64,000 bases of DNA, taken from assembly GCF_055900595.2 (NCBI RefSeq), contig NZ_CM148325.1, one strand, 5' to 3'. A model generated the notes under the pieces. The model was given only the letters and a program-made list of their open reading frames with translations, did no database searches and was not told the DNA's origin. The first letter of the stretch is position 1. The number at the start of each line of letters is the position of its first letter. Position numbers and translations under genes: made by a program. Positions 42,758 through 64,000 of the stretch are shown one piece after another.

Positions 42758-43340
42758 ACCGGAAGCAAATTATTAAAGAGCCGTGCCCGCTGGCACACCT
42801 TAAATATAGGTTTTAACCCCTATATTGTCAAACAAAATCCCTATATCATGAAGTAAAAAAGCACCTCCCGCGACCTCCCTTTCCGGTGCACGAAAGTGCA
42901 CAAATTTGCACAATTTTTTTGAACGACTTTTTGCCCTTCCGGCCCGTGTGGCGTCTGGATCCGTCGGGGATCCGTGCGTGCACGAAAAAAGGCCTTTTTC
43001 TGCGCGCAGGTGACGGGGGAACAGCCCGCGTTTCAGGGGGTAAATAGCATTCCCTGAACGATGTTGCAGTGACACAACAGAATGGCTGTATTTCTCACGC
43101 TGAGCGTGAAAAAGACGTAAGGGCTTTTGATTTGATGGGGTGAAAGATAAGGCCGTCAAAATCGCACTGAGGCAGCGAGAATATGTCGTCAGAGTTGCGG
43201 GGTTGCGTAAGCATCCGCCCGGCGATGATGGCTACAGGGCTGGAGATGTTGTGAAATTATCTGAAGGAATAACCAGCTTGCAGGAGAACCCGGGCAAAGT
43301 CAGAATAGCGGCAGGCATCAACTCAAAAGAGGATAATGTC

Positions 43341-43844
43341 ATGAGCCACTTTAATGATTTATGCCAGATCAATCGTGAAGCTGAAGAAAAACGCGCTGAG
43401 GCAGCTCAAATTTTGCGGGATGAAGCGGCAAGGCTGATTGATTTCTATGAAGAATGGCTGGGGCTTCCATCCATGTACTGGGAAGACGATGATGGCGACC
43501 TGCACCGCTACGTGGAGACAGGCTTGCCATGTAAGACAGCGGCGGATTTTAGTCCTCTTTCAGTCCACAATATCGCATCTGCACCAGACAATATTTTCCG
43601 CATGGCCGTACGAACCTGGGTTAAGTCATCTGACAGCAGCTACCCGGTAAGCGTGGTTATTGCACTTGAATTATATTCAGTAGATGCGGAACGGGTGTCT
43701 CTGAGAGTCCGGGTGGAAGACGATATTTCTGTTCGCGTATTTATCAATAAACCCAGCGAAGAAGCCTGGGGCGATGTTGTTATGCACATGAAAAAGCACA
43801 TCGCTAATCACCTGAAAAAGCGAGCGCCATCAGCACTTCGTTAA
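43341..43844 (+). CDS. hypothetical 167-aa protein (prophage cargo); alternative GTG start at 43140
   Basis: ATG at 43341 with aaagagga RBS; followed by bidirectional terminator before Q. Confidence 0.5.
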   Translation: MSHFNDLCQINREAEEKRAEAAQILRDEAARLIDFYEEWLGLPSMYWEDDDGDLHRYVETGLPCKTAADFSPLSVHNIASAPDNIFRMAVRTWVKSSDSSYPVSVVIALELYSVDAERVSLRVRVEDDISVRVFINKPSEEAWGDVVMHMKKHIANHLKKRAPSALR

Positions 43845-43910: not shown

Positions 43911-44966
43911 TCAGGATATGGGCCGGGTGTCTAACAGTGCGTAAGGGTTAAAACGGATCACCTCTTCGCCCAGCCAGTCGTTGACGTGTTTCATTGCTTC
44001 CATGACGGGCATCAGTTCGTTAATGGCAAACACACGGGCTGCCTTCTCCACATCCCCGAATGACCCCTTCTCACCCGGCATGGCCCCCATCAGCTGAGGT
44101 GGCACGCGGTGCACAGCCAGCACGTCATCACGCGATGCGGCCTTGACGTTCATGAACTCATCCTTTGCGGTGATTTGCTGAAACGGCAAAATCTGTACGC
44201 CATCCTTACCACCTCCCGCCGCGTGGATGAGCAGATTTTTAAACGCCCCGCCACCACGCGCGCTTTGCAGTGTTTCCCGCAGTTTTTCCATGCTTTCACG
44301 GTCAACCTGCGCCGCACCGATGTAGACAATACAGCCCGCGTGTGAGCCGTTATCGTAGTAGAGCTTGCGGAAGATATCGGCGGAATGTGACAGGCTGGCA
44401 GACAGCAGGCCGCCCAGGTAATCCGGCATCCCGTAAATCTCCTGGTTGATATCAGGATTCATCAGGTGGCATATCGTCCCCTCACGAAAGCGGTACTCTT
44501 CCTGTCCTTCCTGTATATACCACCATGATTTCATATCGCTGCCACGTCGCATGTATTTCGCCAGCGCCCGGCGCAGGGCCAGCGGTTCGCCAAGCATGTT
44601 GCGCCGCAGCTCAAGACAGGCATTACCGAACACAAACCAGTCCATCGCCACCCCGGCGAACTCCTGGCGGGACAGCAGAGGATGTGGAATATAGCAGCCC
44701 AGCAGCACATTACGTTTGAAGCTGAGCGCCGACTGGTGCCAGGACGTCTGGCGGGCAGCCCGTGCCAGTCCGTACCAGTCAACGGGCGTTTCAAACCACC
44801 GCCCGTTGTCGGCGCAGTACATGCTGTCCAGCAGGTCGGCCCCTGACAGCCGGTAAGGTCCTTCAAACGTGAAGGCACTCAGTGTCGGGTCGCTTCGCAG
44901 GGAATCCGCAAGGCTGCCCTGCGCTGCGCGGGCGTTCGTACGTCGTTGTTTATTTTTTCTGCTCAT
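43911..44966 (-). CDS. Q: portal protein (P2 gpQ-like)
   Basis: 351 aa; position downstream of terminase P in the leftward P-Q operon. Confidence 0.85.
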   Translation of the reverse strand: MSRKNKQRRTNARAAQGSLADSLRSDPTLSAFTFEGPYRLSGADLLDSMYCADNGRWFETPVDWYGLARAARQTSWHQSALSFKRNVLLGCYIPHPLLSRQEFAGVAMDWFVFGNACLELRRNMLGEPLALRRALAKYMRRGSDMKSWWYIQEGQEEYRFREGTICHLMNPDINQEIYGMPDYLGGLLSASLSHSADIFRKLYYDNGSHAGCIVYIGAAQVDRESMEKLRETLQSARGGGAFKNLLIHAAGGGKDGVQILPFQQITAKDEFMNVKAASRDDVLAVHRVPPQLMGAMPGEKGSFGDVEKAARVFAINELMPVMEAMKHVNDWLGEEVIRFNPYALLDTRPIS

Positions 44967-46717
44967 CAGAACTCCGTAACACTGAAGGGGGCGGCATCAT
45001 GTTCACCGCCGACAGGTTCGTTGATAACGGCCAGCATGGTGGCCCATGCAAGATCGCCATGGCTTACGCCTCTTGCGCGATCTGTTTCGTAGGTGATAAA
45101 TCCGGCCTGCGTTTTTGTTTTGCGTACCGCGTTAAAGGCGCTCACCAGTTCGCGCTCGCTGCGGTCGTACTCCCACCGCCCGGCGCGCATGAGCTGCAGC
45201 ATCTTCAGAACCAGCGTGCGCTTTGATGACAGGGTGAAGGTGTAGGGAATGGCTGCCGGAAAAAAGCGCTTCACAATCTGATACACCGCATCCCCGTGAC
45301 CGCCGGTTACGTCAATACCGATATGCTCAACGTTATAGCGAAAGGTGAACTCTTCAATCACCTTCGCCTGCGCCTCAAACTCCAGCCCCTGCACCCGCCG
45401 CGTCTCCACGGTGCGAAAACGCCCGCCCGGTACGGCTGGCGGCACCACCACGACAACCGCCCCGCTGTCACCGTTCCCGCTACTGCCGTTGGCGTCGTAC
45501 CCAATCCACACAGGGCGGTTCCCCATCGGACGCGGTGCAAACGGCTTCCAGTCCGGCCACTCGTCGTATCCGTCAACACCGCAGCCAATCAGGATATTCA
45601 GGTTAAATGCCGATTCCCCTTCGCGAGCAAATTCACACATGTAGAGATTGCGGAACTCGTCTTCAGTGTTATTGCGCCGGATTTTGTCAATGTTGGTTAA
45701 CGTCCATCCCTGACTGACCACATCTTCCAGCGTCACAATTTGCCGCCAGATATAGTCAGGACAGATAAGGCCGTTATGAAGCGCATTCCAGCTCACATCA
45801 AAATGCTGACGTTTATGAGTACGAAGCCCTTCATTCCAGTGATCGCCGTTCCAGTATGCATACGCCTCATGTGTTTCACTTGATGGCGTGGAAAAATAGG
45901 TACACCGCAAACCATCCAGCGTTGCCATAGCAGCAGCCACCTTGCGCAGCTCTGCGAAACGCCCCGTCCAGAAAAACTCATCAAAATACAGATTCCCTGT
46001 GTACGCTTGCGCGGTGGCCGCAGAAGTGCCGAGAAAATGCAGCTCTGCACCGTTGGAGAGGATGACTTTATCGCCCCCTTTCAGTTCCACATCAACTTCA
46101 GATGCAGCCTTCTGAATAATGCTTTTAAACTGGAGCGCCTGACGACGAGACGCAGACAAAAAAATCTGGTTACGCTGGTAAGGTTGTGCCACATCGTCAC
46201 GCAGCGCCATCAGCAGCGCTTCCTGCGCAAAATACCAGGTCGCCCCAATCTGGCGGGATTTCAGGATCATCCTGTCAGTAATTCCGGCACGCTCACAGGC
46301 ACCGATAGCATCAAGCCATTTGCGCTGGTGTCCGGCCAGCCTGTCGGTAATTTTTTCCCGCAGCGCCGCGATCTGTTCCGGCGTGAAATGATTTTTGTGT
46401 TTTTTCGCCCGGCCTTTCTTTCCTGTTGCCGTCTCATCCGGCAGACCGTCATGCAGCTTTTTAAGCTGACGGGTCAGCAAATCAATTTCCTTAAAGTCCC
46501 CGCCTGTTTTATTCTGTTTTTCCGTGAGCTGAATGAGTCGCGCATCCATGGACTGCGTGACACGCTGAACCGGGGGCGTCTCATCCCACTGGTCGCGTTT
46601 TTTCCACGAATGGATCGTGTTCTGGTTGATACCCATAAGGCGGGAAATTTCCGCAACAGGGTAACCCTGCCAGTACAGCTGGCGTGCCCGCTGGCGAACA
46701 AATGTATCCTGAATCAT
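44966..46717 (-). CDS. P: terminase large (ATPase) subunit (P2 gpP-like)
   Basis: 583 aa; N-terminal HTH-like segment, ATPase and nuclease regions. Confidence 0.9.
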   Translation of the reverse strand: MIQDTFVRQRARQLYWQGYPVAEISRLMGINQNTIHSWKKRDQWDETPPVQRVTQSMDARLIQLTEKQNKTGGDFKEIDLLTRQLKKLHDGLPDETATGKKGRAKKHKNHFTPEQIAALREKITDRLAGHQRKWLDAIGACERAGITDRMILKSRQIGATWYFAQEALLMALRDDVAQPYQRNQIFLSASRRQALQFKSIIQKAASEVDVELKGGDKVILSNGAELHFLGTSAATAQAYTGNLYFDEFFWTGRFAELRKVAAAMATLDGLRCTYFSTPSSETHEAYAYWNGDHWNEGLRTHKRQHFDVSWNALHNGLICPDYIWRQIVTLEDVVSQGWTLTNIDKIRRNNTEDEFRNLYMCEFAREGESAFNLNILIGCGVDGYDEWPDWKPFAPRPMGNRPVWIGYDANGSSGNGDSGAVVVVVPPAVPGGRFRTVETRRVQGLEFEAQAKVIEEFTFRYNVEHIGIDVTGGHGDAVYQIVKRFFPAAIPYTFTLSSKRTLVLKMLQLMRAGRWEYDRSERELVSAFNAVRKTKTQAGFITYETDRARGVSHGDLAWATMLAVINEPVGGEHDAAPFSVTEF

Positions 46718-46782
46718 TTCTCCCCCTCATGTGATTCAGGCAGTTTACTCACCCCTTACAGGCCTCCTGCCATGCCCGGTGT

Positions 46783-46806
46783 TGTCGGCATTCGCTTACA
46801 ACAAAC
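46783..46806 (+). promoter_or_regulatory. Ogr-type late promoter element (TGT-N12-ACA dyad) in the divergent P/O control region
   Basis: TGTcggcattcgcttACA at 46783-46800, about 70 nt upstream of the O start. Confidence 0.45.
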
Positions 46807-46871
46807 GCACTTTGTCTGTCCCTGCCCCGTTTTGCCATCATGAGACAAACGATCATCACGAGGGCCCGACA

Positions 46872-47708
46872 ATGCCTGAACAGAAAAAAACATCCCGTAA
46901 AACATTCCGCGTGGCCGTTTCCGGTCCCACCGCAGACGGTCGCGAAATCAGTGCCGCAGATTTGCGCGCGGCGGCCAGTAACTTCAACCCTGAGATTTAC
47001 GGCGCACGCGTGAACGTGGAGCACTGGCTTTCACCGGTTCCGTCCAGTGAATTTTCCGCCATGGGTGATGTGACGGCACTGAGCACAGAAGAAATCACCG
47101 AAGGTCCGCTGGTCGGTCGTACTGCGCTGTATGCGGAAATCGAACCCACCGACCGCATGAAAAATCTGGTCTCCCGGGGTAAGAAAATTTACTCCAGTAT
47201 TGAGCTGGCACGAAATTTCACCCCTACGGGCACCCCGTATCTTATTGGCCTTGCCATGACAGACACCCCGGCAAGCATCGGCACGGAGCGTCTTCAGTTC
47301 GCCCTGCAGCAGCGCCGTTCGGTCATGACCTTCAATAATCAGCAGACGGAAGCACCGATGTTCTCTGACGCCATTGAGGCTGAAGTGATCGAACTGACGG
47401 AGCGCCGCAGCGAGGAAGGTGCGCAGTGGTTTAACCGCGTGATGAACATGATTGGGCGAGGACGCAGGGCTGACGACACCCGGTTCTCCCGCATTCATGA
47501 CGCCGTTGAGGGGATAGCCTCATCGCATGCCGACCTTCTCGACCGCTTCAGTGCACTGGAATCGCGCCATCAGGCAGACAGACAGAAAGTCGCCACCCTG
47601 TCCACTGAGCTGGCAGAGCTGAAAAACAGACTGCGCGGACTGGACGCTGATCAGCAAAGTCGTTTTACGGCAACCGGCGGGCAGTCCAGACAACTGGCTG
47701 ACTACTGA
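46872..47708 (+). CDS. O: capsid scaffolding protein (P2 gpO-like)
   Basis: start MPEQKKTS with RBS; position between P and N. Confidence 0.85.
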   Translation: MPEQKKTSRKTFRVAVSGPTADGREISAADLRAAASNFNPEIYGARVNVEHWLSPVPSSEFSAMGDVTALSTEEITEGPLVGRTALYAEIEPTDRMKNLVSRGKKIYSSIELARNFTPTGTPYLIGLAMTDTPASIGTERLQFALQQRRSVMTFNNQQTEAPMFSDAIEAEVIELTERRSEEGAQWFNRVMNMIGRGRRADDTRFSRIHDAVEGIASSHADLLDRFSALESRHQADRQKVATLSTELAELKNRLRGLDADQQSRFTATGGQSRQLADY

Positions 47709-47736
47709 CAGAAATAACCACAAGAGGTGATAACCG

Positions 47737-48876
47737 ATGAATCTGATCATGAGCGATGCCGCGCGGGCCGAGCTTTTTGCTTACCAGGCACAACAGGCAG
47801 AGATGAATAACATCACGATATCTGCGCTCTCCTCCCGCTTTTCGGTACAACCGGCAGTGCAGCAGAGATTTGAAAACGCATCAAAGGAAAGCCATGATTT
47901 TCTTCAGAAAGTCAACAGCATTGGTGTGACAGAGCAGAAAGGTGAAAAGGTACTCCTGGACACCACCGGGCCGGTTGCGCGCACGAACAGCAGTTATGAC
48001 GGCACAAATCGTCGTAACCCGCTGAATGTGGTGGACATGAAAGCGCGACGCTATGAGTGCGAGCAGGTGAACTACGACACCTTCATCTCCTACCCTCAGC
48101 TTGACATGTGGGCCGGACACCCTGACTTCCAGCTGCGTGTGAGTCGCCAGATTGCCAGACAGGTGGCACTTGATCGCATCATGACAGGTTTTAACGGTAC
48201 GCACCATGCGGAAGTCTCGGATATAAAAAAACACCCGCGACTTGAGGACGTCAATAAGGGGTGGCTGCAGGATATCAGGGACCAGGCCCCGCAACGCGTC
48301 ATGAAAGACGTGATGCTGACTGCGCGCAATATGGACAATTCGGTGGCATACACCGGCAGATACGCCAATCCCGATGCACTGATCCAGGATGCACGCTCAT
48401 CCCTGCTTGACGAATGGCACAAGGACGCAGACGACCTCGTTGTCATCATGGGGCGAAACCTCTTTAACTCCCTGCGCCTGCCGGTCCTGAACAGTATCAG
48501 CATGCAGAATCCGAATGCCGAACTGCTTGCCGGACAGCTCATTGTGTCAACGCGGACCATTGGCGGCCTTGATGTGTACCTTGCGCCATTTTTCCCGGCT
48601 CAGTCAATACTCATCACCTCATTCAGCAACCTGTCGGTTTACTGGCAGAAGGGGTCCATGCGTCGTCTCATGAAGGATGAGCCCGAATACAACCGTATCG
48701 CCATCTATCAGTCCGTTAACGACTGCTATGTGGTTGAGGACCATGGTAAGTGCGCACTGATTGAGAATATCAGCTTTGCCGAATATGACCATGACGCGCC
48801 GGACTGGTACCGGGACGCCACAAAAGCACTGTCAGCGCAGGCTGAAGACAGGGATGCAGGGGAAGAGGAGGATTAA
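47737..48876 (+). CDS. N: major capsid protein (P2 gpN-like)
   Basis: 379 aa; segments YECEQVNYD, DFQLRVSRQ, IMTGFNG align with P2 N as recalled. Confidence 0.9.
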   Translation: MNLIMSDAARAELFAYQAQQAEMNNITISALSSRFSVQPAVQQRFENASKESHDFLQKVNSIGVTEQKGEKVLLDTTGPVARTNSSYDGTNRRNPLNVVDMKARRYECEQVNYDTFISYPQLDMWAGHPDFQLRVSRQIARQVALDRIMTGFNGTHHAEVSDIKKHPRLEDVNKGWLQDIRDQAPQRVMKDVMLTARNMDNSVAYTGRYANPDALIQDARSSLLDEWHKDADDLVVIMGRNLFNSLRLPVLNSISMQNPNAELLAGQLIVSTRTIGGLDVYLAPFFPAQSILITSFSNLSVYWQKGSMRRLMKDEPEYNRIAIYQSVNDCYVVEDHGKCALIENISFAEYDHDAPDWYRDATKALSAQAEDRDAGEEED

Positions 48877-48878
48877 CC

Positions 48879-49661
48879 ATGCTGACACCGGCACAGGCTC
48901 ATTTCCAGCGCGTGATGGCTTTACGGGCAGGAACGGCAGCAGAAAACGAGGATATCGTGGCCCGCACGGCTCATGAGCAGGTCCTTCACCGTCTGCGCCT
49001 GGCACAGCAACGCATAAAGGGCGTCCAGGCAAAAGCGGCAAAGGCCGCGCTCAAGCGTGAAATGCTGCCGGGTTTTGCAGGCTGGATAGACGGCACGCTG
49101 GAAGCCGACGGCGGACAGCAGGATGAGGTGATAGCCACACTCATGGTGTGGGCCGTGGACTGTGGCGACCTGGCGCTTGCACTGCGCATCGGGGATTATG
49201 TGGTTCGCCACAACCTCACGATGCCTGACAACTTCGGGCGTACGGCAGCCACGGTACTGACCGAGGAAATCTGCAACCCTGTTCTGACACAGGCCGGAAC
49301 GGATGCACACGCCGATTTGTCCGGCTACATCGAACCGCTGGACACCCTCTGGCAAATTGTCGCGAACCGGGACATGCCCGATGAGGTCCGCGCCAAGCTG
49401 TGCAAGGCATGCGCCTTTGCCCGTCGTGGCCTGACCGATGCCGACAGCATGGCGGTGAGTCTGAAGCTGTTCCGTGAGGCAATGCACCTTAACCCGAATG
49501 CGGGGGTAAAACGTGAGATTGCCACGCTTTCACGGGCCCTGAAAAAGGCCGGACAGGATGAAGCCGCTGCCGCACAGGAGCCTGCGGCACAGAAAGATAC
49601 AACCAGAGAACAGACCACGACGCCGAAGGCGAAAGCGAAAGCGAAGGCGAAACGTGGTTAA
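48879..49661 (+). CDS. M: terminase small/endonuclease subunit (P2 gpM-like)
   Basis: 260 aa; position and P2-like order. Confidence 0.85.
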   Translation: MLTPAQAHFQRVMALRAGTAAENEDIVARTAHEQVLHRLRLAQQRIKGVQAKAAKAALKREMLPGFAGWIDGTLEADGGQQDEVIATLMVWAVDCGDLALALRIGDYVVRHNLTMPDNFGRTAATVLTEEICNPVLTQAGTDAHADLSGYIEPLDTLWQIVANRDMPDEVRAKLCKACAFARRGLTDADSMAVSLKLFREAMHLNPNAGVKREIATLSRALKKAGQDEAAAAQEPAAQKDTTREQTTTPKAKAKAKAKRG

Positions 49662-49763
49662 CGGCTGACCCCGTCAGAAGGCGGCGTGCCGGGCGTTCCG
49701 GTTACGGTTTTCCGTTCCCCTTACACCCGGCACCCACCGCTTTTTTTTCTGAAGGAGCGATTT

Positions 49764-50258
49764 ATGAGCATGGTCGCAAGACCGGAAGCCGCCCCTGCGC
49801 GGGACGACATCACCGACACCGACGACGGCGACGCCACCATCACCGCCGGGGCATTCTGGCCGGAGATTGTGCTGCGGGAGCTGCGCCTTGCAGTACGCCT
49901 GCCGGGCCGCATCACCTCCACACGTCTGGCGCACGTTGCCACGGGAGCCGTGGCTCACGTCACGCGGGAGCTGGAAGAGTGGCAGCAGGCGCAAATCGCC
50001 GCAGGATTCAGCACGCTGACAGACGTACCTGCCGCCACCATCAACGGTGAGAGCGTCAACGCCTGGCATTACCGGCACGCCGTCTACAGCGCCACCCGTG
50101 CCCTGATTCTGGAGCGCTGGCGGGATGTGGACACCACCGACAAGGGGGACCGCAGGGCTGACGCACTGGATGAGCAGGTGGAGGACCTGTGGCGCGACGT
50201 GCGCTGGGCGATTTCCGATATTCTCGGCTTTCCCCGTCTTTTTGTGGAGCTTGTGTGA
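49764..50258 (+). CDS. L: capsid completion protein (P2 gpL-like)
   Basis: ATG at 49764 with aaggagcg RBS. Confidence 0.8.
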   Translation: MSMVARPEAAPARDDITDTDDGDATITAGAFWPEIVLRELRLAVRLPGRITSTRLAHVATGAVAHVTRELEEWQQAQIAAGFSTLTDVPAATINGESVNAWHYRHAVYSATRALILERWRDVDTTDKGDRRADALDEQVEDLWRDVRWAISDILGFPRLFVELV

Positions 50259-50455
50259 TGAAAGTGAGGGCACTTCAGGGGGACACCGTGGATTTACTCT
50301 GTTTCCGGCACTACGGCACCACGCAGGGGGTGACCGCACAGGTACTTGATGCCAATCCCGGGCTCTGCCGCCAGGTAATTCTGGAAGCGGGACAGGAGGT
50401 GGAGATGCCGGAGCCGGAAAGGAAACAGCAACGCGAAAAGGTAAAGCTATGGTGA
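50258..50455 (+). CDS. X: tail protein X (P2 gpX-like)
   Basis: 65-aa ORF MKVRALQGDTVD... at the X position. Confidence 0.75.
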   Translation: MKVRALQGDTVDLLCFRHYGTTQGVTAQVLDANPGLCRQVILEAGQEVEMPEPERKQQREKVKLW

Positions 50456-50739
50456 CGGGATTTTTTCAGCGCGTCAGTGACTGGATCACCTTCTGGGCGT
50501 CAGTGACGGCAACAACCATTGGTGTTATGACCATCAGCGAAAAAATTGCGCTGGCCGGGCTGCTTCTGGGGTCACTTTCCGCCATCCATGCCTGGCGCCA
50601 CCGCAGGCGTACGGAGCAGGCAATGAAGCGCCGCAATGACCTTATCGCCCGCATCCTGGCACGTTCAGAAAACCGCGAGCTTCACGACGGTGAGAGACGG
50701 GCACTGGACAGCGTGAGACAGGACGGAGAAGAGCGGTGA
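50449..50739 (+). CDS. holin (probably pinholin, partner of SAR endolysin)
   Basis: 96 aa with hydrophobic helices, charged C-terminus; precedes endolysin. Confidence 0.7.
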   Translation: MVTGFFQRVSDWITFWASVTATTIGVMTISEKIALAGLLLGSLSAIHAWRHRRRTEQAMKRRNDLIARILARSENRELHDGERRALDSVRQDGEER

Positions 50740-51281
50740 AGCTGCCGGTAAAACGTTATGCGGTGGCGGCCATTGTGGCGCTGGGCGTCTCCATGGCACC
50801 CGGTGAACTGAGAACCTCACGGGAAGCACAGATAAAAATCGCCACCCGGGAAGAGTGCCGGGCGACACCGTACCGTGATATTGCAGGAGTAATGACCGTG
50901 GGATGTGGTTCAACAGGGGGCGTGGAGAACCGGGTTTACGGAGAAAAGGAGGTGGCCCGCCGCTGGGTGAATGACCTGCGGCACGCGGAAAACTGTATCA
51001 ACCAGAACTTCAGCGGTGCCGCCATGCCCCAGTCCGCCTTTGAGGCGATGACCGACGCGGCGTTCAACGTCGGCTGTACCGGCCTGATGTGGTACCGGGA
51101 CAGGAGCGGCAACCGGCAGCGCACCACCATCTGGAAGCACGCACAGGCGCACCGCTGGGTGGCGATGTGCGGGAGACTGACCGATTTTGTCAACAGTGGC
51201 GGACGCCGCTCACAGGGGCTGGTTAACCGCCGGGAGGAGTTCAGACAGTGGTGTCTTCGCGACACGGGAGGCAGCACATGA
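50736..51281 (+). CDS. SAR endolysin (T4-lysozyme-like muramidase with N-terminal signal-arrest-release segment)
   Basis: N-terminal YAVAAIVALGVSMAP; catalytic E-D-T spacing in REECRATPYRDIAGVMTVGCG; GTG start overlapping holin stop. Confidence 0.85.
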   Translation: MKLPVKRYAVAAIVALGVSMAPGELRTSREAQIKIATREECRATPYRDIAGVMTVGCGSTGGVENRVYGEKEVARRWVNDLRHAENCINQNFSGAAMPQSAFEAMTDAAFNVGCTGLMWYRDRSGNRQRTTIWKHAQAHRWVAMCGRLTDFVNSGGRRSQGLVNRREEFRQWCLRDTGGST

Positions 51282-51685
51282 GACCGGTTTACGCCGTGAT
51301 TGTTGCCCTCATGGTGACCGCCCTGACGGCAGTGGCCATGTGGCAGTCATACCGGCTGGGGCGTGCCGGTGAGGCACGTGACGCCGCAGAGCAGCAGCTG
51401 GGCGAATACAGCCGTGCGCTGCGTGAATCCTCCGCCGTTATCAGCGATGCCTCCGCCGTACTGCATGAGGTGATGACGCAGCGACAGCAAAGGGCACAGG
51501 AAGGAGAAGCCAGACGTGAACAGCTTCGCGAAATTACTGCGACGGATGAGTGCGCCCGCGCTCTTCCTGACCACCGTTTTACTGACCGGCTGCGCGAACA
51601 CACGGAACGCGCCACTGCCCGCGCCCTCCTTCCGGTTCATTCCGGCGGGACTGACGACGGGAACACGGCCCCCGCCCTTCCCTGA
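51278..51685 (+). CDS. lysB: i-spanin (LysB/Rz-like)
   Basis: N-terminal TM helix then coiled-coil; ATGA overlap with endolysin. Confidence 0.7.
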   Translation: MRPVYAVIVALMVTALTAVAMWQSYRLGRAGEARDAAEQQLGEYSRALRESSAVISDASAVLHEVMTQRQQRAQEGEARREQLREITATDECARALPDHRFTDRLREHTERATARALLPVHSGGTDDGNTAPALP

Positions 51686-51830
51686 ACACCCCACCTGGGG
51701 AAATATCGGGATATGGAGCGACAGCCTCCTGGATGCACTGGAAACCTGCAACGCAGACAAACAGGCCATTGAGGCGCTGGAGCGCCGGAGACTCAACCGA
51801 CAGAACGGAGGGGGACATGCTGAAAAGTAA
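51516..51830 (+). CDS. lysC: o-spanin lipoprotein (LysC/Rz1-like), overlapping lysB in another frame
   Basis: lipobox LLTGC after signal peptide; Pro-rich; overlapped arrangement as in P2. Confidence 0.7.
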   Translation: MNSFAKLLRRMSAPALFLTTVLLTGCANTRNAPLPAPSFRFIPAGLTTGTRPPPFPEHPTWGNIGIWSDSLLDALETCNADKQAIEALERRRLNRQNGGGHAEK

Positions 51831-52281
51831 ATCCCTGAGCACACACATGAGTACAGCGTGCCGGTGGTGCAGGGCCAACCCGGAAAAGTTCACCGTGTTC
51901 ATTGAACGTGGCGGGATAGAGACCACCGGCGAGACGCCGACGTTCGTGTACAACTACCGGCTCGTGATGTTCGTCATGGACTACACGGGCGACCTGGACG
52001 ACCTGACGCTGCCGCTGATTGTCTGGCTGGCAGAGAACCAGCCGCAGTTGCTGCTTAATCCTGAGCGCAACGGCGATATTCAGTTCACGGCGGCCATTAA
52101 CGACGACGACAGTGCGGACGTGCTTTTTGAGGTGCCGCTGCGCGAGCGCGTGCGCGTCACCCGCAGGGATGACGGCACCCTCACAACGGAACATCTGCCG
52201 GAGCCGAAATCGCGCATCCCGCAGGACGGCGACTGGTCGCACATTCTGGAGGATGTGACGTGGGAGGTGACCGGTGACTGA
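51817..52281 (+). CDS. R: tail completion protein (P2 gpR-like)
   Basis: start MLKSKSL with RBS ggaggggg. Confidence 0.8.
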   Translation: MLKSKSLSTHMSTACRWCRANPEKFTVFIERGGIETTGETPTFVYNYRLVMFVMDYTGDLDDLTLPLIVWLAENQPQLLLNPERNGDIQFTAAINDDDSADVLFEVPLRERVRVTRRDDGTLTTEHLPEPKSRIPQDGDWSHILEDVTWEVTGD

Positions 52282-52915
52282 CAGGGCTTTCACTGAACTG
52301 GACCGCACAATGCGGACCATCAGTAGCGGACTTTCCCCGCAGGCACTGAGCCGGATTGCCGGGCAGCTTGCCAGAGAGCTTCGCCGCAGCCAGCAACAGC
52401 GCATGCGTGCACAGAAAGCGCCGGACGGTACACAGTGGGAGCCGCGCAGACGGCGCATCAGCCGCCTGCAGCAGCGTATCCGCTTCATCCGGAACAACGA
52501 AACCCGCACGCTGAAAAACTGGCATCACGACGTGAGCAGACACGGACGCACCATCACCGGCTGGGATGAGGATAAGGGAGGCCTGCGCACCTTCTACCGG
52601 GAGGATATCACCCGTTATATTGAAATCAGCACCCGCCGCATCAGCCGCAACGCCACAAAGACCGTACCGATGTTTGCGAAGCTGCGCACGGCACGCTACC
52701 TGAAAGCCAGAGGCGATGCGGGCGGTCTGACCGTCGGTTATGACGGCGTGGCGGCACGCATTGCCCGCGTTCACCAGTTCGGGGAGCGCGACCGGGTGGC
52801 CGCAGGGGTGTATACGGATTATCCGGCCCGTGAACTTCTTGGAATAACACCGGCAGATGAACGGCTGATTGCCGACAGGTTACTGAACCGCATTGCGGGA
52901 GAAATATCATCATGA
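52274..52915 (+). CDS. S: tail completion/virion morphogenesis protein (P2 gpS-like, longer than P2 S)
   Basis: position after R; overlapping reading frames. Confidence 0.75.
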   Translation: MTDRAFTELDRTMRTISSGLSPQALSRIAGQLARELRRSQQQRMRAQKAPDGTQWEPRRRRISRLQQRIRFIRNNETRTLKNWHHDVSRHGRTITGWDEDKGGLRTFYREDITRYIEISTRRISRNATKTVPMFAKLRTARYLKARGDAGGLTVGYDGVAARIARVHQFGERDRVAAGVYTDYPARELLGITPADERLIADRLLNRIAGEISS

Positions 52916-53493
52916 ACGCGGAGCTTATGCGCCTTATCAGCAACATTATCAGAACCGGCGTGATTTTCGACGTGAACCCGCAGACCTGGGAGGTCCGGGT
53001 GCGCAGTGGCGGACTGGAGACAGGCTGGCTTCGCTGGAGCACCGCGCGGGCGGGCGCGTTCAGTGTCTGGGTGCCGCCAGCCACCGGTGAACAGGTGGCG
53101 TTCGTCTGTATCGGTGGTAATCCCGAAACCGCGATAATCATCGGCAGCCTCTGGAGCGATGATATCCCGGCACCGGGCAGCACACTGAAGGAAATCATCA
53201 TGACAGCACCGGACGGTGCGGTATTCCGCTACGATGCAGACGCCGGTGCACTGGAGGTTAAGGGGATTAAAACAGCCAGCATTCAGGCCGACACGCGCAT
53301 CACCCTGGACACGCCGGAGGTGGTGTGTACCCGCAAACTTATCACCGCCACCCTGGAGGTGCAGAACGGCGGCGAGATGCGCGGCAGCATATCCCACAGC
53401 GGCGGCAGCCTGACATCCAACGGTATCACCGTTCATACGCACACCCACGGTGGCGTCAGGACGGGCCCGGGCACCACGGGAGGCCCGCAATGA
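52912..53493 (+). CDS. V: baseplate spike protein (P2 gpV-like)
   Basis: 193 aa; conserved HTHTHGG-like C-terminal apex motif. Confidence 0.85.
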   Translation: MNAELMRLISNIIRTGVIFDVNPQTWEVRVRSGGLETGWLRWSTARAGAFSVWVPPATGEQVAFVCIGGNPETAIIIGSLWSDDIPAPGSTLKEIIMTAPDGAVFRYDADAGALEVKGIKTASIQADTRITLDTPEVVCTRKLITATLEVQNGGEMRGSISHSGGSLTSNGITVHTHTHGGVRTGPGTTGGPQ

Positions 53494-53840
53494 CCGCTGT
53501 TTACAGGGGGATGAACCCGCAGGGAACCGGCACGCTGAGCGACAGCGAACACCTGAAAAACAGCGTGCGGGATATCCTGACCACACCGCCAGGCAGCCGG
53601 GTGATGCGCCGCGAATACGGCAGCCTGTTACCGGACCTCATCGACGAGCCCATGAACGACACCACGCGTTTACAGTGCATGAGCGCCACGGTGACTGCGC
53701 TGGCGCGCCATGAACCCCGTATAGCACTGCAGAACGTCGATGTGAACTGGCGGGCTGGCGGACGCGCCGTGGTGACGTTATCCGGCATCATCACCGAAAC
53801 CATGCAGAACATCACATTCAGTATCACCATAAGGGAGTAA
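53490..53840 (+). CDS. W: baseplate wedge protein (P2 gpW-like)
   Basis: start MTAVYRGMNPQGTG; P2 order. Confidence 0.85.
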   Translation: MTAVYRGMNPQGTGTLSDSEHLKNSVRDILTTPPGSRVMRREYGSLLPDLIDEPMNDTTRLQCMSATVTALARHEPRIALQNVDVNWRAGGRAVVTLSGIITETMQNITFSITIRE

Positions 53841-53843
53841 ATC

Positions 53844-54740
53844 ATGCCTTCCGTTGACCTGTCACAGTTACCGGAACCGGCCATCATCGCGCAGCCGGAT
53901 TTTGAGTCCATCCTGGCAGACATTAAAACCATGATGGTGAGCTCCTTCCCGGAAGAATACCGCGCCGCCGTCACCCGTGCCCTTACTCTGGAATCCGAGC
54001 CATTGAACATCATTTCCCAGGCCATGGCCTTTCGTGAAATGCTGCTTCGCCAGCGCATCAATGAAGCCGCCCGCGCCTGCATGCTCAGCCACAGCCGGGG
54101 CAGTGACCTGGACAATCTGGCTGCCAACAACAACACCCGCCGCCTGGTCATTCATCCGGCCACTGATACCACGGAAGCAGTGATGGAAAGCGACACATCG
54201 CTGCGTCTGCGTGCCCAGTCAGCCTGGGACGGCCTGAGTGTGGCCGGACCGTCCGGCGCGTATGAGTATTTTGCCCGGAGCGCAAGCGGTCTTGTCCGTG
54301 ATGCGCGCGCCATCAGCCCGTCACCGGCCACAGTCACCGTCTCCATCCTGTCAGCAGACGGTGACGGCACCGCCGGTGAGGCGTTACTGAACACGGTGCG
54401 CACCGCCCTGAATGCCGAGAACGTGCGCCCGGTTGCCGACCGCCTGACTGTGCAGAGTGCTACCATCGTGAACTGGGAAATGGAAGCGAAGCTGTATTTT
54501 TATCCAGGGCCGGAGTCTGAACCCATGCTTGCGGCCGCTGACGCCGCTTTCCGTGCATGGCTGGCAGACCAGGGCCGTATCGGTCAGGATGTGGCCCTGT
54601 CAGCCATCACTGCAGCGCTGCATGTTCACGGTGTCCAGCGCGTTGAGGTCATAAAACCCACGCAGAACATCACCATCAGTGACACTCAGGCAGCCAGATG
54701 TACCACATTCAGCATCAGCGAAGGAGGACGCAATGAGTGA
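53844..54740 (+). CDS. J: baseplate protein J
   Basis: 298 aa at the J position. Confidence 0.85.
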   Translation: MPSVDLSQLPEPAIIAQPDFESILADIKTMMVSSFPEEYRAAVTRALTLESEPLNIISQAMAFREMLLRQRINEAARACMLSHSRGSDLDNLAANNNTRRLVIHPATDTTEAVMESDTSLRLRAQSAWDGLSVAGPSGAYEYFARSASGLVRDARAISPSPATVTVSILSADGDGTAGEALLNTVRTALNAENVRPVADRLTVQSATIVNWEMEAKLYFYPGPESEPMLAAADAAFRAWLADQGRIGQDVALSAITAALHVHGVQRVEVIKPTQNITISDTQAARCTTFSISEGGRNE

Positions 54741-55461
54741 CAGGAAAAAAACAGACAGCGCACAGCACAGTACATCACTGCTTCCACCGTCCGCAGGGCC
54801 ATTCATGCGCGCCACAGAGGCGACAGGAGTACGCATCAGTACCATACCGGTGGACGCCGACACCCTGTGGTCGCCGGACCGCTGCCCTGCTCACCTCCTG
54901 CCCTACCTTGCATGGGCATGTTCCGTTGACCGCTGGGACCGCAACTGGCCGGAAGAGACCAGACGACAGGTGATTGGCCAGTCCTGGAAGGTACACCGCC
55001 AGAAAGGAACGGTCAGCGCACTGAGGGAAACAGCCGCAGCATTCGGTTATGAGATGACCATCAGTGAATGGTGGGAGCATGGAGGGCAGCCGGGCACCTT
55101 TACTGTGACCATCGGGGCAGACACTCAGGGCATCGGCCCTGAAACATGGCTGGAGATGGAGGATCTGCTCAATGATGCACGTCCGGTTTCACGTCATATG
55201 ACGGGGCTTTATGCCGCCCTGCGTTCTGGCGTGACGGTTTACTGCGCTGCGGGAGCAGGCTGTGATGAGCTTGTAACCATTCACCAGAAAGCTCGCGCCT
55301 CCCTGGCGGGCCAGGTGACCATCATCGCAGCAGGAGACACACACACAACCGACAGTGTGACCGTACTGCCGGGGGTTCCGTCAGGTATGTACGGGGAGAT
55401 CTGTATCCGTACCGGCGCAGGTATATTCGTGAGTGAGATTGTGGAGGTTATCACCTTATGA
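54733..55461 (+). CDS. I: baseplate/tail protein I
   Basis: start MSDRKKTD with RBS aaggagg, overlapping J stop. Confidence 0.8.
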   Translation: MSDRKKTDSAQHSTSLLPPSAGPFMRATEATGVRISTIPVDADTLWSPDRCPAHLLPYLAWACSVDRWDRNWPEETRRQVIGQSWKVHRQKGTVSALRETAAAFGYEMTISEWWEHGGQPGTFTVTIGADTQGIGPETWLEMEDLLNDARPVSRHMTGLYAALRSGVTVYCAAGAGCDELVTIHQKARASLAGQVTIIAAGDTHTTDSVTVLPGVPSGMYGEICIRTGAGIFVSEIVEVITL

Positions 55462-56573
55462 ACACCGATTTTTATTCCGTTCTGACGGATGCCGGGCTGA
55501 AAAAACTGGCGGCAGCCGCAGCATCAGGGAATCAGATGAAAATCACCCATATGGCTGTAGGCGACGGAAACGGAAAAGCCGTAACACCCGGCAGGGCCGA
55601 CACCAGGCTTGTCAGGGAAAAATACCGTGCGCCACTGAACAGTCTGGAAGAAGACACAGAGAGACCGGGGCATGTTATCGCAGAAATGGTGATACCTGAA
55701 AAACAGGGAGGGTGGTGGATCAGAGAATTCGGATTATTCGACGAAGACGGCGGAATGATTGTTACAGGCAAATTTCCTGACACATGGAAGCCTGCACCTG
55801 GTCAGGGTGGAGCACGACTGATATCAGTGAAAGTGGTTGTGGCAGTATCACATACAGAAAACATTGTGCTGAAAGTGGATCCTTCTGTTGTCATGGCAAC
55901 CCGGGAATGGGTGAACACAAAAGCAGAGCAGTTAAAGAAAGAGCTCAGACAACCTGATGCAACCACCAAAACAAAAGGCATTGTTCAGCTTAGCAGTGAC
56001 ATCAACAGCACCTCTGAAACGCAGGCTGCCACCCCCGGAGCGGTAAAAGCCGTGAATGATCGTGTGGACGGAAAACAGGACGCGGATCCCACGCTCACAT
56101 CTCTGTCCGGGAAAAATGCACAGCAACTGAGGCAGCTTCTGGGGCTGGGCACGCTTGCCACCCTGAACAGGGGCACCGGTTCAGGGAATGTGCCGGACAT
56201 GAGTCACTTTGCGAGTAAAAAAGCAGACTACGGTTACCAGTGTTTTCCTGGCGGCATAATGATCCAGTGGCTGCGGATCCCCTCAGACCACACAGAAAGA
56301 GCTGTCAGTCAGGAAGCCCGGGTGGCACTAAGCGGCGTGCGACTGTTTTCAGTGGAGGGTAACTGGAACGGTAATAACATGATTAAGACCCTGGCAAACT
56401 ACCAGTGGCCGAGAGTTTTCGGGGCAATTTATGCGACCGTTGCAACCAGGAATCACGGATCTGCATGGCGAGTATATCCGGTGTCCGCGAACAAGGATGT
56501 GCGTGTCGTATCCATTGCCTGGGCGGGAGAAGGTACAGATGACACTTATGTGGTTGGGGTGGGAAGAGTATGA
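55458..56573 (+). CDS. H: tail fibre protein (gpH-like conserved N-terminus, short divergent C-terminal receptor-binding region)
   Basis: N-terminus MNTDFYSVLTDAGLKKLAAAAASGN..ITHMAVGDGNG resembles P2 H; 371 aa versus ~670 in P2. Confidence 0.8.
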   Translation: MNTDFYSVLTDAGLKKLAAAAASGNQMKITHMAVGDGNGKAVTPGRADTRLVREKYRAPLNSLEEDTERPGHVIAEMVIPEKQGGWWIREFGLFDEDGGMIVTGKFPDTWKPAPGQGGARLISVKVVVAVSHTENIVLKVDPSVVMATREWVNTKAEQLKKELRQPDATTKTKGIVQLSSDINSTSETQAATPGAVKAVNDRVDGKQDADPTLTSLSGKNAQQLRQLLGLGTLATLNRGTGSGNVPDMSHFASKKADYGYQCFPGGIMIQWLRIPSDHTERAVSQEARVALSGVRLFSVEGNWNGNNMIKTLANYQWPRVFGAIYATVATRNHGSAWRVYPVSANKDVRVVSIAWAGEGTDDTYVVGVGRV

Positions 56574-57016
56574 AAATGATGTGGTCGCCGTCTGTGGGCG
56601 GTTTTTTTGGTGAAGACAGCAGCCATATACCGGAAGATGCGGTGGAGGTTGATGAATCGATGTGGAGCAGGATGATGGAGGGACAACTTGAGGGAAAAAT
56701 TATCGTTAACGGCCCTGACGACCTGCCTGTTCTGGAAGAGCGTCCGGGACCGGGGCCAGAAGAATACCGGCATCAGGCTCGCCTTGAGCTTGCTGACCTT
56801 CGCCGACAGGGGCTGGAACACATAGAGTCGATGCGCTGGCGTGACAAAGCGGTCATGAACAGGCTGGGAGAAGAGGAGAAGCAGGAGTATAACGCCTGGC
56901 TTGACTGGCTCGACGCGCTTGACAGTACGGACATATCAGGGGCACCGGATGTGGTGTGGCCGGTGATGCCCGTCACGGTGGTTCCTGAACATCCTCAGAA
57001 AAAATTGCCGGAGTGA
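56570..57016 (+). CDS. tail fibre assembly chaperone (Tfa/gpG-like)
   Basis: C-terminal ...YNAWLDWLDALD...VVWPVMP resembles the conserved Tfa C-terminus. Confidence 0.65.
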   Translation: MKMMWSPSVGGFFGEDSSHIPEDAVEVDESMWSRMMEGQLEGKIIVNGPDDLPVLEERPGPGPEEYRHQARLELADLRRQGLEHIESMRWRDKAVMNRLGEEEKQEYNAWLDWLDALDSTDISGAPDVVWPVMPVTVVPEHPQKKLPE

Positions 57017-57022
57017 ACAGCC

Positions 57023-57050
57023 TCCGGCCTGAGACTGCACTCAGGCCGGA
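57023..57050. terminator. bidirectional terminator hairpin between convergent tfa and U
   Basis: 11-bp stem tccggcctgag / ctcaggccgga. Confidence 0.55.
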
Positions 57051-57057: not shown

Positions 57058-57504
57058 TTATCTGCCAGCATTGCGGATGATACCCGAAAGCATATCAGAC
57101 ACCGACGGCATCATTCGCTCCCGCAAATCCTCATCACAGCGTTCCATACTGACAGTGAACTCAATTTTTTTGGCCTTACCGTGGCGGTCAAGTTCGCTTC
57201 GCGTTGTGCGGACAGCCGTTATCACATACATGCCGTATATCTGCCCCACACCGTCAATCAGCGGCCATGGGCGGCCAGTGTAAGCCTGCGTCGTTAAAAG
57301 GCTGAGGGAAACCTCACCGCCGGTAATTTCGGGATAAAGCACACCGGACAACGTGATCTGGTCGTCACCCGCCCCGATATACTGCCAGCTGGCCGAACGA
57401 TTGATGCGTTCATTTTTAACGTGGCGCCAGGTTTTATTATGTTGCAGTTGTTGATGAGGCAGCGTGCGCAACTCAAAAACAAACATGCCGTAAATCATCA
57501 TCAT
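57058..57504 (-). CDS. U: tail protein U
   Basis: 148 aa; MMMIYGMFVFELRTLPHQ...ITLSGVLYPEITGG...GRPWPLIDGVGQIYGMYVI resembles P2 U. Confidence 0.85.
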   Translation of the reverse strand: MMMIYGMFVFELRTLPHQQLQHNKTWRHVKNERINRSASWQYIGAGDDQITLSGVLYPEITGGEVSLSLLTTQAYTGRPWPLIDGVGQIYGMYVITAVRTTRSELDRHGKAKKIEFTVSMERCDEDLRERMMPSVSDMLSGIIRNAGR

Positions 57505-61094: not shown

Positions 61095-61571
61095 GCCAGG
61101 CGACCACCTCGCCGGGATCCATCAGGAAGATTTCAGCGGGAGACCAGTTGAAAATAACGGCGATATCCGCCACAAAGTCTTCAATATGCTCAAAGGGCAC
61201 GACGGTTATCAGCCTGCCGTCGCCGCCACGCTCTTCCCGCCAGAGTCCTGACCGGCCAAAAAATTAACCGCCACCCCGCACAGCTGAATAAAATCAGCGG
61301 ACCCCATGCGCTTAAGCAGAACCTCGTCCAGTCGCGGCGAAGTGACGCGCGGGAGTAACTCAAACATCGCGTCCGTTTTCATGTTCAGCACGTCAAGCAG
61401 TGACAGCCCGCGCAGTGAACCGGCCTGCTGTACAGCAGGCGTGATTTCCACATACGTGATTTTTTTGTTACCGAGCACAAGGGGCGTTTTCAGCGTCACG
61501 CCGCGCTCACTGGTCACGTCCGCCGCATCAGCACCGTCAGTAACAGGGGCAACAACCGGATTTTCTTTCAT
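61045..61571 (-). other. predicted E+E' product made by -1 programmed frameshift at TTTTTTG (61257-61263), extending to a TGA at 61045 and overlapping the T start
   Basis: hand translation of the -1 frame after the slippery heptamer gives ~70 more codons. Confidence 0.5.
61209..61571 (-). CDS. E: tail assembly chaperone E
   Basis: 120-aa ORF between FII and T containing a T6G slippery site near its 3' end. Confidence 0.8.
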   Translation of the reverse strand: MKENPVVAPVTDGADAADVTSERGVTLKTPLVLGNKKITYVEITPAVQQAGSLRGLSLLDVLNMKTDAMFELLPRVTSPRLDEVLLKRMGSADFIQLCGVAVNFLAGQDSGGKSVAATAG

Positions 61572-61621: not shown

Positions 61622-62140
61622 TTAACCACCAAGACCAATCGCCGAGCGCACGCGGTCCGGGAAGACGCTTTTGCCGTCCTTGCGTTCGATGTGGTTCAGT
61701 AAATCAATCTCCAGCACCGGACGGTCGTTAATGCTGAGTTTGTAGTAGGTACTTTTGACCGCATAGGTGTGAGACGTGACCTCACCCTGTTTGGCCTCCC
61801 CGGTATCAATTTCCGTCACGCGACCGCGAAGCTCAATCTCGTACAGGTCACTCTGTTCTTCATCGTTGTAGTACTCACCGACAAAGCGCAGCAGCGTACC
61901 GTCAATCGTTCCGCCGTACTTGAGGAACAGTTCGCGGGTCGGCCCGCCCATGGTGAAACTCGCATCCAGCGCGCCGTCATCCAGGCCAAGGTCGATATTT
62001 ACTGCACCGGCCATACCACCACCGCGATAGGCTTCCGTTTTACGGGTCAGTTTGGGGGCCGTGAAGCCGGTCACTCTGCCAATCTGGTTCACCCCGTCAG
62101 TAAACAGCGTGAACACCCTGAGATTTTTTGGTACGGCCAT
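61622..62140 (-). CDS. FII: tail tube protein FII
   Basis: 172 aa, position after the sheath gene. Confidence 0.9.
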   Translation of the reverse strand: MAVPKNLRVFTLFTDGVNQIGRVTGFTAPKLTRKTEAYRGGGMAGAVNIDLGLDDGALDASFTMGGPTRELFLKYGGTIDGTLLRFVGEYYNDEEQSDLYEIELRGRVTEIDTGEAKQGEVTSHTYAVKSTYYKLSINDRPVLEIDLLNHIERKDGKSVFPDRVRSAIGLGG

Positions 62141-63423
62141 TAAGCACCTCCAAGCGTCGCAAATGCAGGACCAAAGAATTCATCAGTAAACGTCTGGTAA
62201 AGTTCCATATCCTCAAGCGGCGGAACGGGCGTGTACTTGTAGCGGATACGCACGCGTCCCTGACGAAGTTCCGTGGTGCTGTTATCCACCACGTCATACC
62301 AGCACTCCGCACCAACGAGACGTCCTGACGTAACCAGCGCATCCAGTTTTGCGCGAATTGCGCTTAACACGTCTTTCACATTAGCAGGGGTCAGCGGGGC
62401 ATCAATCGTTTCAAACTGCGCTTCCGCAACAGAATCAGCCAGCACCTGAGCGGTTCGCGTGTACACCTCAAAGATATACGCCTTCGTTTCCGGCGTACGG
62501 TTGCCCCAGAAGCGGAAACCGTTACGGCGAATGATGGTGGTGATTTCCTTGTTGTTGAGATTGTTGGCATCGCTGTCTTCGGACTGAAGGGACCAGAACA
62601 CCGGGCTGGAAATACCCAGCACATTTCTTACCGGCACGTTGGACAGCGATTTATGCCAGCCCTGTTCGTGGTCAATACGTGCACGTAAACCGCAGGCGTA
62701 CGCCGCAGCCGGGAAGACCTCATTAGCGCCGGATTTCGGGTTATGGGCGATGAAGTCAGGCCAGAGCAGCATAAGTTCGCGCTCGTTAAATCTGGCGCGG
62801 TAGCTGATTGCATCAGCGGGCTTCTTGCAGTTGTGACAGCCCGCGTAGACAAATGCGCGAAGTTTTTCTGCAATTACACACAGGGATTTTGTGACAGCTT
62901 CAGTATCCAGTCCGGGCGCTGCGATGATGCGCGGACGGTAACCGATGGCATCATCCTGTTCAGCTATCAGAAGTGCATACATACCGGTATAATTACCGTC
63001 GTCATCCGTGCCACCAATGACATACTGGTCCTGCGTTTTGTGTGGGTATACAGGATGTGCATCTTCAGACTCATCAATACCAAAAAATGCCCTGTCTTCA
63101 GGATCCAGATGACCGAATGATGTAACTCCTGTATCCGGGGCGCCCTGAGAACTGGCATCAGGAACGCGCACCACAATCACCTTCGTGCTCACCTGGTCGG
63201 CGACAGCCTTAAGTGAACGGTACAGCGTGCCCTTTGTGCCGGTCTTACCCAGCACATCACTGACGCGGGTCAGCAGTATGGGTTTGTTCAGCGGGAACAG
63301 AGTTTCATCCGCGTCATCTGCCGTAGCCACAATACCAATAACACTGGAATCCACATCATTAATGGCGGTGGTAAGGCCGGTACTTTCCCTTACGCGCGCA
63401 CCATGAAAGCGTGTTTCACTCAT
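62140..63423 (-). CDS. FI: contractile tail sheath protein FI
   Basis: strong similarity to P2 FI (KLRAF, IDHEQGWHKSLSNV, RRNGFRFWGNRT, YKYTPVPPLE); likely start MSETRF at 63423. Confidence 0.9.
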   Translation of the reverse strand: MSETRFHGARVRESTGLTTAINDVDSSVIGIVATADDADETLFPLNKPILLTRVSDVLGKTGTKGTLYRSLKAVADQVSTKVIVVRVPDASSQGAPDTGVTSFGHLDPEDRAFFGIDESEDAHPVYPHKTQDQYVIGGTDDDGNYTGMYALLIAEQDDAIGYRPRIIAAPGLDTEAVTKSLCVIAEKLRAFVYAGCHNCKKPADAISYRARFNERELMLLWPDFIAHNPKSGANEVFPAAAYACGLRARIDHEQGWHKSLSNVPVRNVLGISSPVFWSLQSEDSDANNLNNKEITTIIRRNGFRFWGNRTPETKAYIFEVYTRTAQVLADSVAEAQFETIDAPLTPANVKDVLSAIRAKLDALVTSGRLVGAECWYDVVDNSTTELRQGRVRIRYKYTPVPPLEDMELYQTFTDEFFGPAFATLGGA

Positions 63424-63583
63424 ATGTTTCACCCTTGTCTGGCTGGTTGATTTTGCGTAATCATTACCCACGATGCCGCCGGTATCATCTCCTGCCCGTT
63501 CTCACCGTTCGCTTACAACAAACAGCCGTTCACCACGGTCGCACGCCGTGAAAACATGACGGGACACACCACGAGGGCAGACC

Positions 63584-64000
63584 ATGACCGACCTGTTAAT
63601 CAACGTTCCGTCACCGGATATCGAAATCACCATCAACAACAACAGACTCCGTAACGTCACGGAGCGGCTCATGACGCTGTCACTGACCGACAACCGGGGC
63701 TTTGAGGCGGACCGCGTCACCCTGACCATTGACGACGCGGACGGGCAGCTTCAGCTGGCACAGCGCGGCGCACGCCTGAACGTGATGATTGGCTGGCGCG
63801 GGGAGGCGCTGGTTAACAAGGGTGTCTACATCGTTGATGAAGTGACGTGGGAAGGCCCGCCGGACAAACTGACCATCACCGCCAGCAGCGCCGATTTTCG
63901 CGAAGAGTTCAACGTGAAGCGTGAAGTCTCCTGGCACGACGTGACGGTAAAACAGGTTGTGTCAGCCATCGCGCACCGCTACGGCCTGAAAGCACAGATA
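63584..64000 (+). CDS. D: tail protein D, N-terminal part (continues beyond window)
   Basis: MTDLLINVPSPDIEITINNNRL... resembles the P2 D N-terminus; ATG at 63584. Confidence 0.75.
   Translation, partial: MTDLLINVPSPDIEITINNNRLRNVTERLMTLSLTDNRGFEADRVTLTIDDADGQLQLAQRGARLNVMIGWRGEALVNKGVYIVDEVTWEGPPDKLTITASSADFREEFNVKREVSWHDVTVKQVVSAIAHRYGLKAQI

Follow-up and report, generated by a model that had tools for sequence, protein, structure and literature searches.

In phage P2, the tail genes FI and D belong to one co-directional operon (FI FII E E′ T U D) that is transcribed from PF alone. In the prophage described here, the FI-FII-E-T-U block is inverted, running opposite to D and to genes O through G, and FI (minus strand) and D (plus strand) diverge over a gap of 160 nt. 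This arrangement raises the question of how D is transcribed, and whether a 16-nt sequence that stands in the gap, and again upstream of O, has a part in its late expression. The original prediction held that D has an Ogr-dependent late promoter of its own, which would make the inverted arrangement functional rather than accidental.

The stretch of DNA analysed (the window) is 64,000 nucleotides long and carries a prophage that we assign to the P88-like (Xuanwuvirus-type) branch of the P2 family. Gene identities were taken from tblastn searches with phage P2 proteins together with the list of open reading frames. The int, C and A genes lie at 31.9-39.8 kb, Q and P at 43911-46717 on the minus strand (P ATG at 46717), and O through G at 46872-57016 on the plus strand (O ATG at 46872). 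The inverted block follows on the minus strand, with U at 57058-57504, T from 57516 to about 61049, E at 61209-61571, FII at 61622-62140 and, as its first gene, FI at 62140-63423; FI, which encodes the tail sheath, matches its P2 counterpart with E = 1e-108 and has Pfam phage sheath domains. D, the gene for the tail/baseplate hub ('late control D'), starts at 63584 on the plus strand and runs past the end of the window, which holds only its 5′ part (63584-64000; 50% identity to P2 gpD, E = 4e-36). The two genes that flank the FI-D site, a tail sheath gene and a tail gene, are thus both morphogenetic (late) genes.

Genes G and U converge, and the 41 nt that separate them contain a hairpin (57023-57050) that has an 11-bp stem and runs of T on both strands and resembles a terminator in either direction. 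It is probably a two-way terminator that ends the O-G and FI-U transcripts and isolates D from the former. With this hairpin in place, and with 6.4 kb of antisense genes upstream of D, D would therefore need its own promoter. Within the O-G segment, the S-like (52274-52915) and V-like (52912-53493) open reading frames overlap by 4 nt, and neither a gap nor a dyad precedes V. The phage seems to have no separate PV promoter, and O through G may therefore form a single transcript of about 10 kb, in which case four late transcripts would depend on just two activator sites.

The sequence that drew attention to the locus, TTCGCTTACAACAAAC, occurs as two exact plus-strand copies, at 46791-46806 and 63508-63523, as had been reported, and we found no further match in the window at up to 2 mismatches. 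Chance would supply 0.05 matches, and two or more copies were seen in 0 of 100 dinucleotide-preserving shuffles. The spacing also agreed with the earlier description: the O ATG (46872) lies 66 nt past the first copy and the D ATG (63584) 61 nt past the second. The first copy overlaps a perfect TGT-N12-ACA dyad at 46783-46800. At the second, the equivalent positions (63500-63517) read TCT-N12-ACA, and the left half is one base off the textbook TGT-N12-ACA consensus, in line with the earlier remark that only the right half is intact.

Similarity between the two sites extends over a patch of 26 nt, GTTCTCACCGTTCGCTTACAACAAAC and GTTGTCGGCATTCGCTTACAACAAAC, in which 22 of 26 positions are identical (local alignment z = 6.4 relative to shuffles). 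The 16-mer itself is composite. Nine of its 16 bases (ACAACAAAC) form the conserved half-site together with its extension, and the remaining seven (TTCGCTT) belong to the dyad spacer; the copy at 63508-63523 accordingly comprises 7 nt of spacer, the ACA half-site and an ACAAAC extension. All relatives have the conserved half-site, ACAACAAA, at P-O as well as at FI-D. The predicted functional unit is therefore the dyad with its ACAACAAA extension rather than the 16-mer. Counts of the bare TGT-N12-ACA pattern show no enrichment across the whole window (13 found, 14.8 expected), so this pattern is uninformative unless position and conservation are also considered. As an 8-mer, ACAACAAA is found more often in the window than expected (8 copies against 2.7), and four of these copies lie on the plus strand of the early region, at 33698-36842, just past the C repressor gene.

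The P-O gap (46718-46871) contains a PP/PO pair of the P2 kind, and the FI-D gap repeats its design. The predicted common activator site of PP and PO, TGTTGT-N12-ACAACA, spans 46780-46803, with the first copy of the 16-mer inside it; its core (46783-46800) is centred at 46791.5, at a distance of 74.5 nt from the ATG of P and 80.5 nt from that of O. A homologous site is kept in 80 relatives, and it is the counterpart of the P2 feature annotated as 'activator binding site; pO, pP promoters'. On the O side we predict an extended -10 element, TG-c-CATCAT (46833-46841, plus strand), and on the P side a -10 hexamer, TAAACT (46742-46747, minus strand), the last T of each being 49.5 nt from the centre. 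P88-like phages have TAATCT at the latter position, and TTTGCCATCATGA is kept at the PO extended -10 in their P-O regions.

Another dyad, TGTTGCAGTGACACAACA at 43062-43079, was noted in the region preceding Q. It is a perfect TGTTG-N8-CAACA dyad that can also be read as TGT-N12-ACA, with about 0.06 such dyads expected per window, and it lacks the ACAACAAA extension. It stands in a non-coding gap, 61 nt ahead of a cargo open reading frame of 234 aa (43140-43844, plus strand), and it may be a third activator site that places this cargo gene under late control. The dyad lies between gene Q and two small minus-strand open reading frames of 90 and 124 aa (42037-42757), cargo between the replication genes and Q, that look like a HigB/RelE-type toxin and an HTH antitoxin.

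P2 provides a mapped reference for a promoter pair of this kind. The P2 record (NC_001895) lists one 'activator binding site; pO, pP promoters' at 3057-3087, with transcript starts at 3016 (minus strand, P) and 3127 (plus strand, O). Its element is TGTTGT-GTCAGTGATAAG-CCA, and the centre of TGT-N12-CCA, at 3071.5, lies midway between the mapped starts, 55.5 nt from either one. The -10 hexamers, TAGCCT and GAAACT, each place their -7 T 48.5 nt from that centre. In the same way, the paper on Smp131, which restates the consensus, gives one dyad with the same coordinates to both PP′ and PO′ (PMC3931495). Each of the mapped P2 sites has one perfect TGTTGT half, the core being TGT-N12-CCA at PO/PP and PF and TGT-N12-CAA at PV, so an imperfect half is normal in working sites. 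Since the perfect half is promoter-proximal at PP and distal at PO, PF and PV, both orientations work.

The FI-D gap follows this geometry closely. The predicted Ogr-type activator site, GTTCT-N12-ACAACAAAC (63498-63523), would be common to PF and to a promoter for D, which we call PD. Its core, TCT-N12-ACA, is centred at 63508.5, with the FI ATG 85.5 nt to one side and the D ATG 75.5 nt to the other. A predicted extended -10 element for PD, TG-a-AAACAT, lies at 63549-63557 on the plus strand, and a predicted -10 hexamer for PF, AATGAT, at 63460-63465 on the minus strand; the last T of each is 48.5 nt from the dyad centre, an offset that equals the -7 position of the mapped PP and PO starts of P2. 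With starts set 7 nt beyond each -10 hexamer, transcription would begin near 63453 toward FI and near 63564 toward D, 111 nt apart as at P2 PP/PO, and the placing of the dyad at about -55 follows from the same -10 elements. Good ribosome-binding sequences lie downstream of both predicted starts. A simple consensus scan of the gap gave no match to a sigma-70 promoter, in keeping with promoters that rely on an activator. We also looked in the gap for a second dyad that could serve as a separate PF site, and found none.

At the sequence level, the locus thus has the features of a P2-type late promoter, namely a partial dyad, a -10-like hexamer with no -35 element, late genes downstream and an Ogr/Delta gene in the phage. 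It also shares with P2 PP/PO the more specific arrangement of a single, partly symmetric TGT-N12-ACA-type site midway between divergent late operons, with no -35 consensus and with -10 elements that end about 48.5 nt on either side of the centre. It differs from P2 PP/PO in its TCT left half and in the ACAACAAA(A) extension of the conserved half, and its starts are predicted whereas those of P2 are mapped. P2 PF (site 17555-17583, start 17626-17628) offers a second comparison. There, too, the site lies upstream of the tail-sheath gene with its perfect TGTTGT half distal, and the distance from site centre to FI ATG is 82.5 nt as against 85.5 nt here; the imperfect proximal half is CCA at P2 PF and AGA, read on the minus strand, in the window. 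However, P2 PF works in one direction, with unrelated cargo (fun/Z) as its upstream gene, whereas here D lies on the opposite side at a promoter-compatible distance.

If the site is used, its position and its -10 elements should be conserved. We searched IMG/VR with 139 residues of D and examined the best 80 loci, in which D identity ranged from 99% to 58%. All 80 have FI immediately upstream of D on the other strand. These loci yielded 68 distinct FI-D gap sequences, the window's own included, and exactly one T[GC]T-N12-ACA was present in 66 of the 68, starting 74-80 nt from the FI ATG, where chance would give about 0.08 per gap; in both of the gaps without the dyad at this place, the estimate of the FI start is off. 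When the gaps were aligned on the dyad, the 12-nt spacer varied freely, and T-T, a (gCG)ACAACAAA(A) block and two flanking blocks were kept. Anchoring the alignment on the dyad pattern makes the conservation of the dyad columns partly a matter of construction; the count of one site per gap and the mirror-image -10 elements are independent of it.

The sample consists mostly of near-identical P88-like sequences, and 19 remained at less than 80% mutual identity. On the FI side, nAnnAT (mostly GATnAT) has its last T 48.5-49.5 nt from the centre in all 19 (chance 0.076 per sequence). On the D side, TGn-nAnnnT has its last T at the same 48.5-49.5 nt in 18 of 19 (chance 0.016 per sequence). Across the relatives, the FI ATG is 82.5-88.5 nt and the D ATG 68.5-76.5 nt away from the dyad centre. 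All P88-like sequences have the TCT half at the FI-D site, and their P-O site (cTGTTCT-ggccgttttctt-ACAACAAAAG) has it as well; more distant relatives have TGT. Because P88-like phages carry TCT at both sites, TCT is a conserved variant and not a sign of decay.

The same layout is present in deposited phages. The nearest deposited relatives are Escherichia phages P88 and 520873 (about 76-77% nucleotide identity), whose records annotate the inverted arrangement. P88, 520873, 500465-2 and P884B11 (all Xuanwuvirus), as well as Citrobacter phage phiSM, resemble the window in having an inverted FI-U block, a divergent D and a gap of 150-160 nt, with TCT-N12-(gCG)ACAACAAAA at the same place; their structural genes are about 70-77% identical to those of the window at the nucleotide level. 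P88 and 520873 carry a DNA invertase and an invertible tail-fibre segment beside U, and the window carries neither. The records of P88 and 520873 contain no late promoter annotation, the papers on P88 and phiSM describe no promoters, and in the searchable literature we came across neither an account of a late promoter in the FI-D gap nor transcript, footprint or reporter results for any P88-like phage. Fels-2 and SopE-phi, considered as further phages with an inverted F block, were dropped as candidates, the Fels-2 record having the canonical co-directional order FI..U-D-ogr that is also found in P2.

The activator gene itself lies beyond the window. A viral contig that is 99-100% identical to the window, and represents the same phage (L004), extends past the window end and contains a D of 363 aa. 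Beginning 43 nt after D, an 83-aa open reading frame (4136-4387 of that contig) matches the Pfam family Ogr_Delta (PF04606) with E = 4.9e-14 and 52.4 bits, against a cut-off of 26.3. Across the D-ogr region (3001-4524), a terminator-like hairpin (4505-4524) appears only after this reading frame. D and the activator gene may therefore form one transcript, in which case the activator would stimulate its own synthesis. P2-type late transcription needs the activator and its contact with the alpha subunit of RNA polymerase, as the rpoA109 phenotype illustrates.

The near-identity of the two sites in this phage is a separate matter from the presence of the FI-D site. The spacers of the P-O and FI-D sites agree at 9 of 12 positions here but at only 1-3 of 12 in the nine other genomes in which both sites were available, and in those nine the alignment scores between the two sites are at background. 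In P88-like phages the FI-D spacer (cccgccacggcg) is unrelated to the P-O spacer of the same phage, unlike the situation in the window. A search for the 16-mer in other genomes, as had been proposed, returned 41 IMG/VR contigs, of which three are related (the same phage and one sister) and 38 present it in unrelated contexts; within IMG/VR, then, the 16-mer has a related context only in the window phage and its sister. That sister (IMG genome 2778261463), in which O is 99% and FI 96% identical to the window over 360 matched FI residues, has the 16-mer at P-O only. Its FI-D site reads TGT-ctcctgacagcg-ACAACAAAA, with the ACA half intact. On this evidence, the TTCGCTT match between the two sites is private to the window phage. 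A short exchange of sequence between P-O and FI-D in this one lineage would be its likeliest and simplest cause.

Two further observations concern the FI-D gap. The window and the sister phage (L005) are identical from FI to just beyond the FI -10 element (about 63466-63470); from there, across the dyad and on into D, which is only 83% identical, the two differ sharply, and a mosaic junction therefore appears to lie inside the gap. A scan of a genome collection with the FI-D-specific 21-mer GTTCGCTTACAACAAACAGCC gave a single match, in a Thermomonas MAG that otherwise shows no similarity to the window, and we discarded it as a chance match.

Several explanations compete with a site that is shared by FI and D. 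The site could be PF and nothing else, serving the FI operon, with D transcribed from a separate, activator-independent promoter or by read-through, and the match to the O side would then be irrelevant to D. This reading fits the orientation of the site, in which the strong half, read as TGTTGT on the minus strand, lies away from FI, just as the strong half is distal at P2 PF, PO and PV, and the distance from the site to FI is conserved at least as well as that to D. It fits less well with the extended -10-like motif that stands on the D side, at the exact mirror position, in 18 of the 19 diverged relatives, although this motif could serve another purpose, such as recognition by a different regulator or a leader-RNA feature. 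Orientation is also no obstacle to D, as P2 PP works with its strong half proximal, which is how D would be placed here. An activator-independent promoter for D finds no sigma-70 consensus in the gap, and read-through is unlikely in view of the antisense block and of the hairpin at 57023-57050. We therefore regard a PF-only site as unlikely.

It is considerably less probable that the second copy of the 16-mer is a mere by-product of recombination or gene conversion, the 16-mer being functionless in itself and its identity an accident laid over two functional sites. The unusual likeness of the two spacers in this phage and the presence of the 16-mer at P-O only in the sister phage are what such an event would leave behind, but with one lineage it is indistinguishable from chance convergence. 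Moreover, conversion accounts for the identity and not for the presence of the site, and it is compatible with a shared promoter. Least probable of all, and in our view very nearly negligible, is that the element is part of a coding sequence or of a structured RNA and is unrelated to promoters, a case that the original prediction had named among its refutations. Mechanically called reading frames do overlap both copies (63502-63729, minus strand; 46731-47708, plus strand, with a GTG start), yet these are antisense to D or upstream extensions of O, no Rfam family matches 63300-63700 at E <= 1, and bases of the spacer and flanks change freely, without the pattern of a reading frame, only the half-sites and the -10 blocks being kept. 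The P88 record likewise has a 43-aa hypothetical protein, SF19_gp50 (L001, 8505-8636), which starts inside FI and spans the FI-D gap including the dyad; since the conservation pattern of the gap is promoter-like, this is probably a spurious gene call.

We therefore favor, with good though not complete confidence, a single Ogr-type site that serves a divergent PF/PD pair of late promoters between FI and D, by analogy with P2 PP/PO. The 16-mer at 63508-63523 would be part of a binding site for an Ogr-family late activator. Bound midway, at 63508.5, the activator would help RNA polymerase to start about 55 nt away on each side. The leftward PF transcript, from near 63453, would cover FI-FII-E-T-U; the rightward PD transcript, from near 63564, would cover D and probably also the ogr-like gene that follows it. 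The repeat, the gene layout, the conserved dyad at its fixed position, the two mirror-image -10-like elements and the Ogr/Delta gene are observed directly; activator binding, these starts and their dependence on the activator are what we infer from the arrangement of the elements. The prediction of an Ogr-dependent late promoter for D is borne out to this extent by the dyad kept in 66 of 68 gaps, the D-side -10 element in 18 of 19 relatives and the Ogr/Delta gene after D, and the same comparative evidence argues that the inverted F block is a working arrangement. It needs amendment in three respects: the site is not specific to D but is equally well placed for the divergent FI, which needs PF; its TCT half is a conserved form and not a damaged one; and the unit to consider is the dyad with its ACAACAAA extension in place of the 16-mer.

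How this arrangement arose can be sketched more tentatively, in a scenario to which we give somewhat less than an even chance. Inversion of the F block would have brought the PF site beside D. Since Ogr sites are symmetric and work at about -55, one such site can become a two-way switch, and here it would have done so once a -10 element arose on the D side. Two sites would then serve four late transcripts, and D and ogr would come under an Ogr-activated promoter in a short positive feedback loop. In the window phage, a patch of about 26 nt would also have been copied from P-O into FI-D; if true, this would be a case in which the activator sites of one phage genome evolve in concert.

These results leave the understanding of the mechanism of Ogr-type activation unchanged, and the two-way design with a common site had already been mapped in P2; what the FI-D gap would add is a second use of the PP/PO design, independently placed. 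The site, the two -10 elements and the two predicted starts can be annotated in many prophages of Escherichia, Klebsiella, Citrobacter and related hosts. For the large P88-like branch, in which the tail-tube/sheath operon is flipped, a shared promoter pair would explain how the essential tail gene D, and probably the activator gene too, remains under late control.
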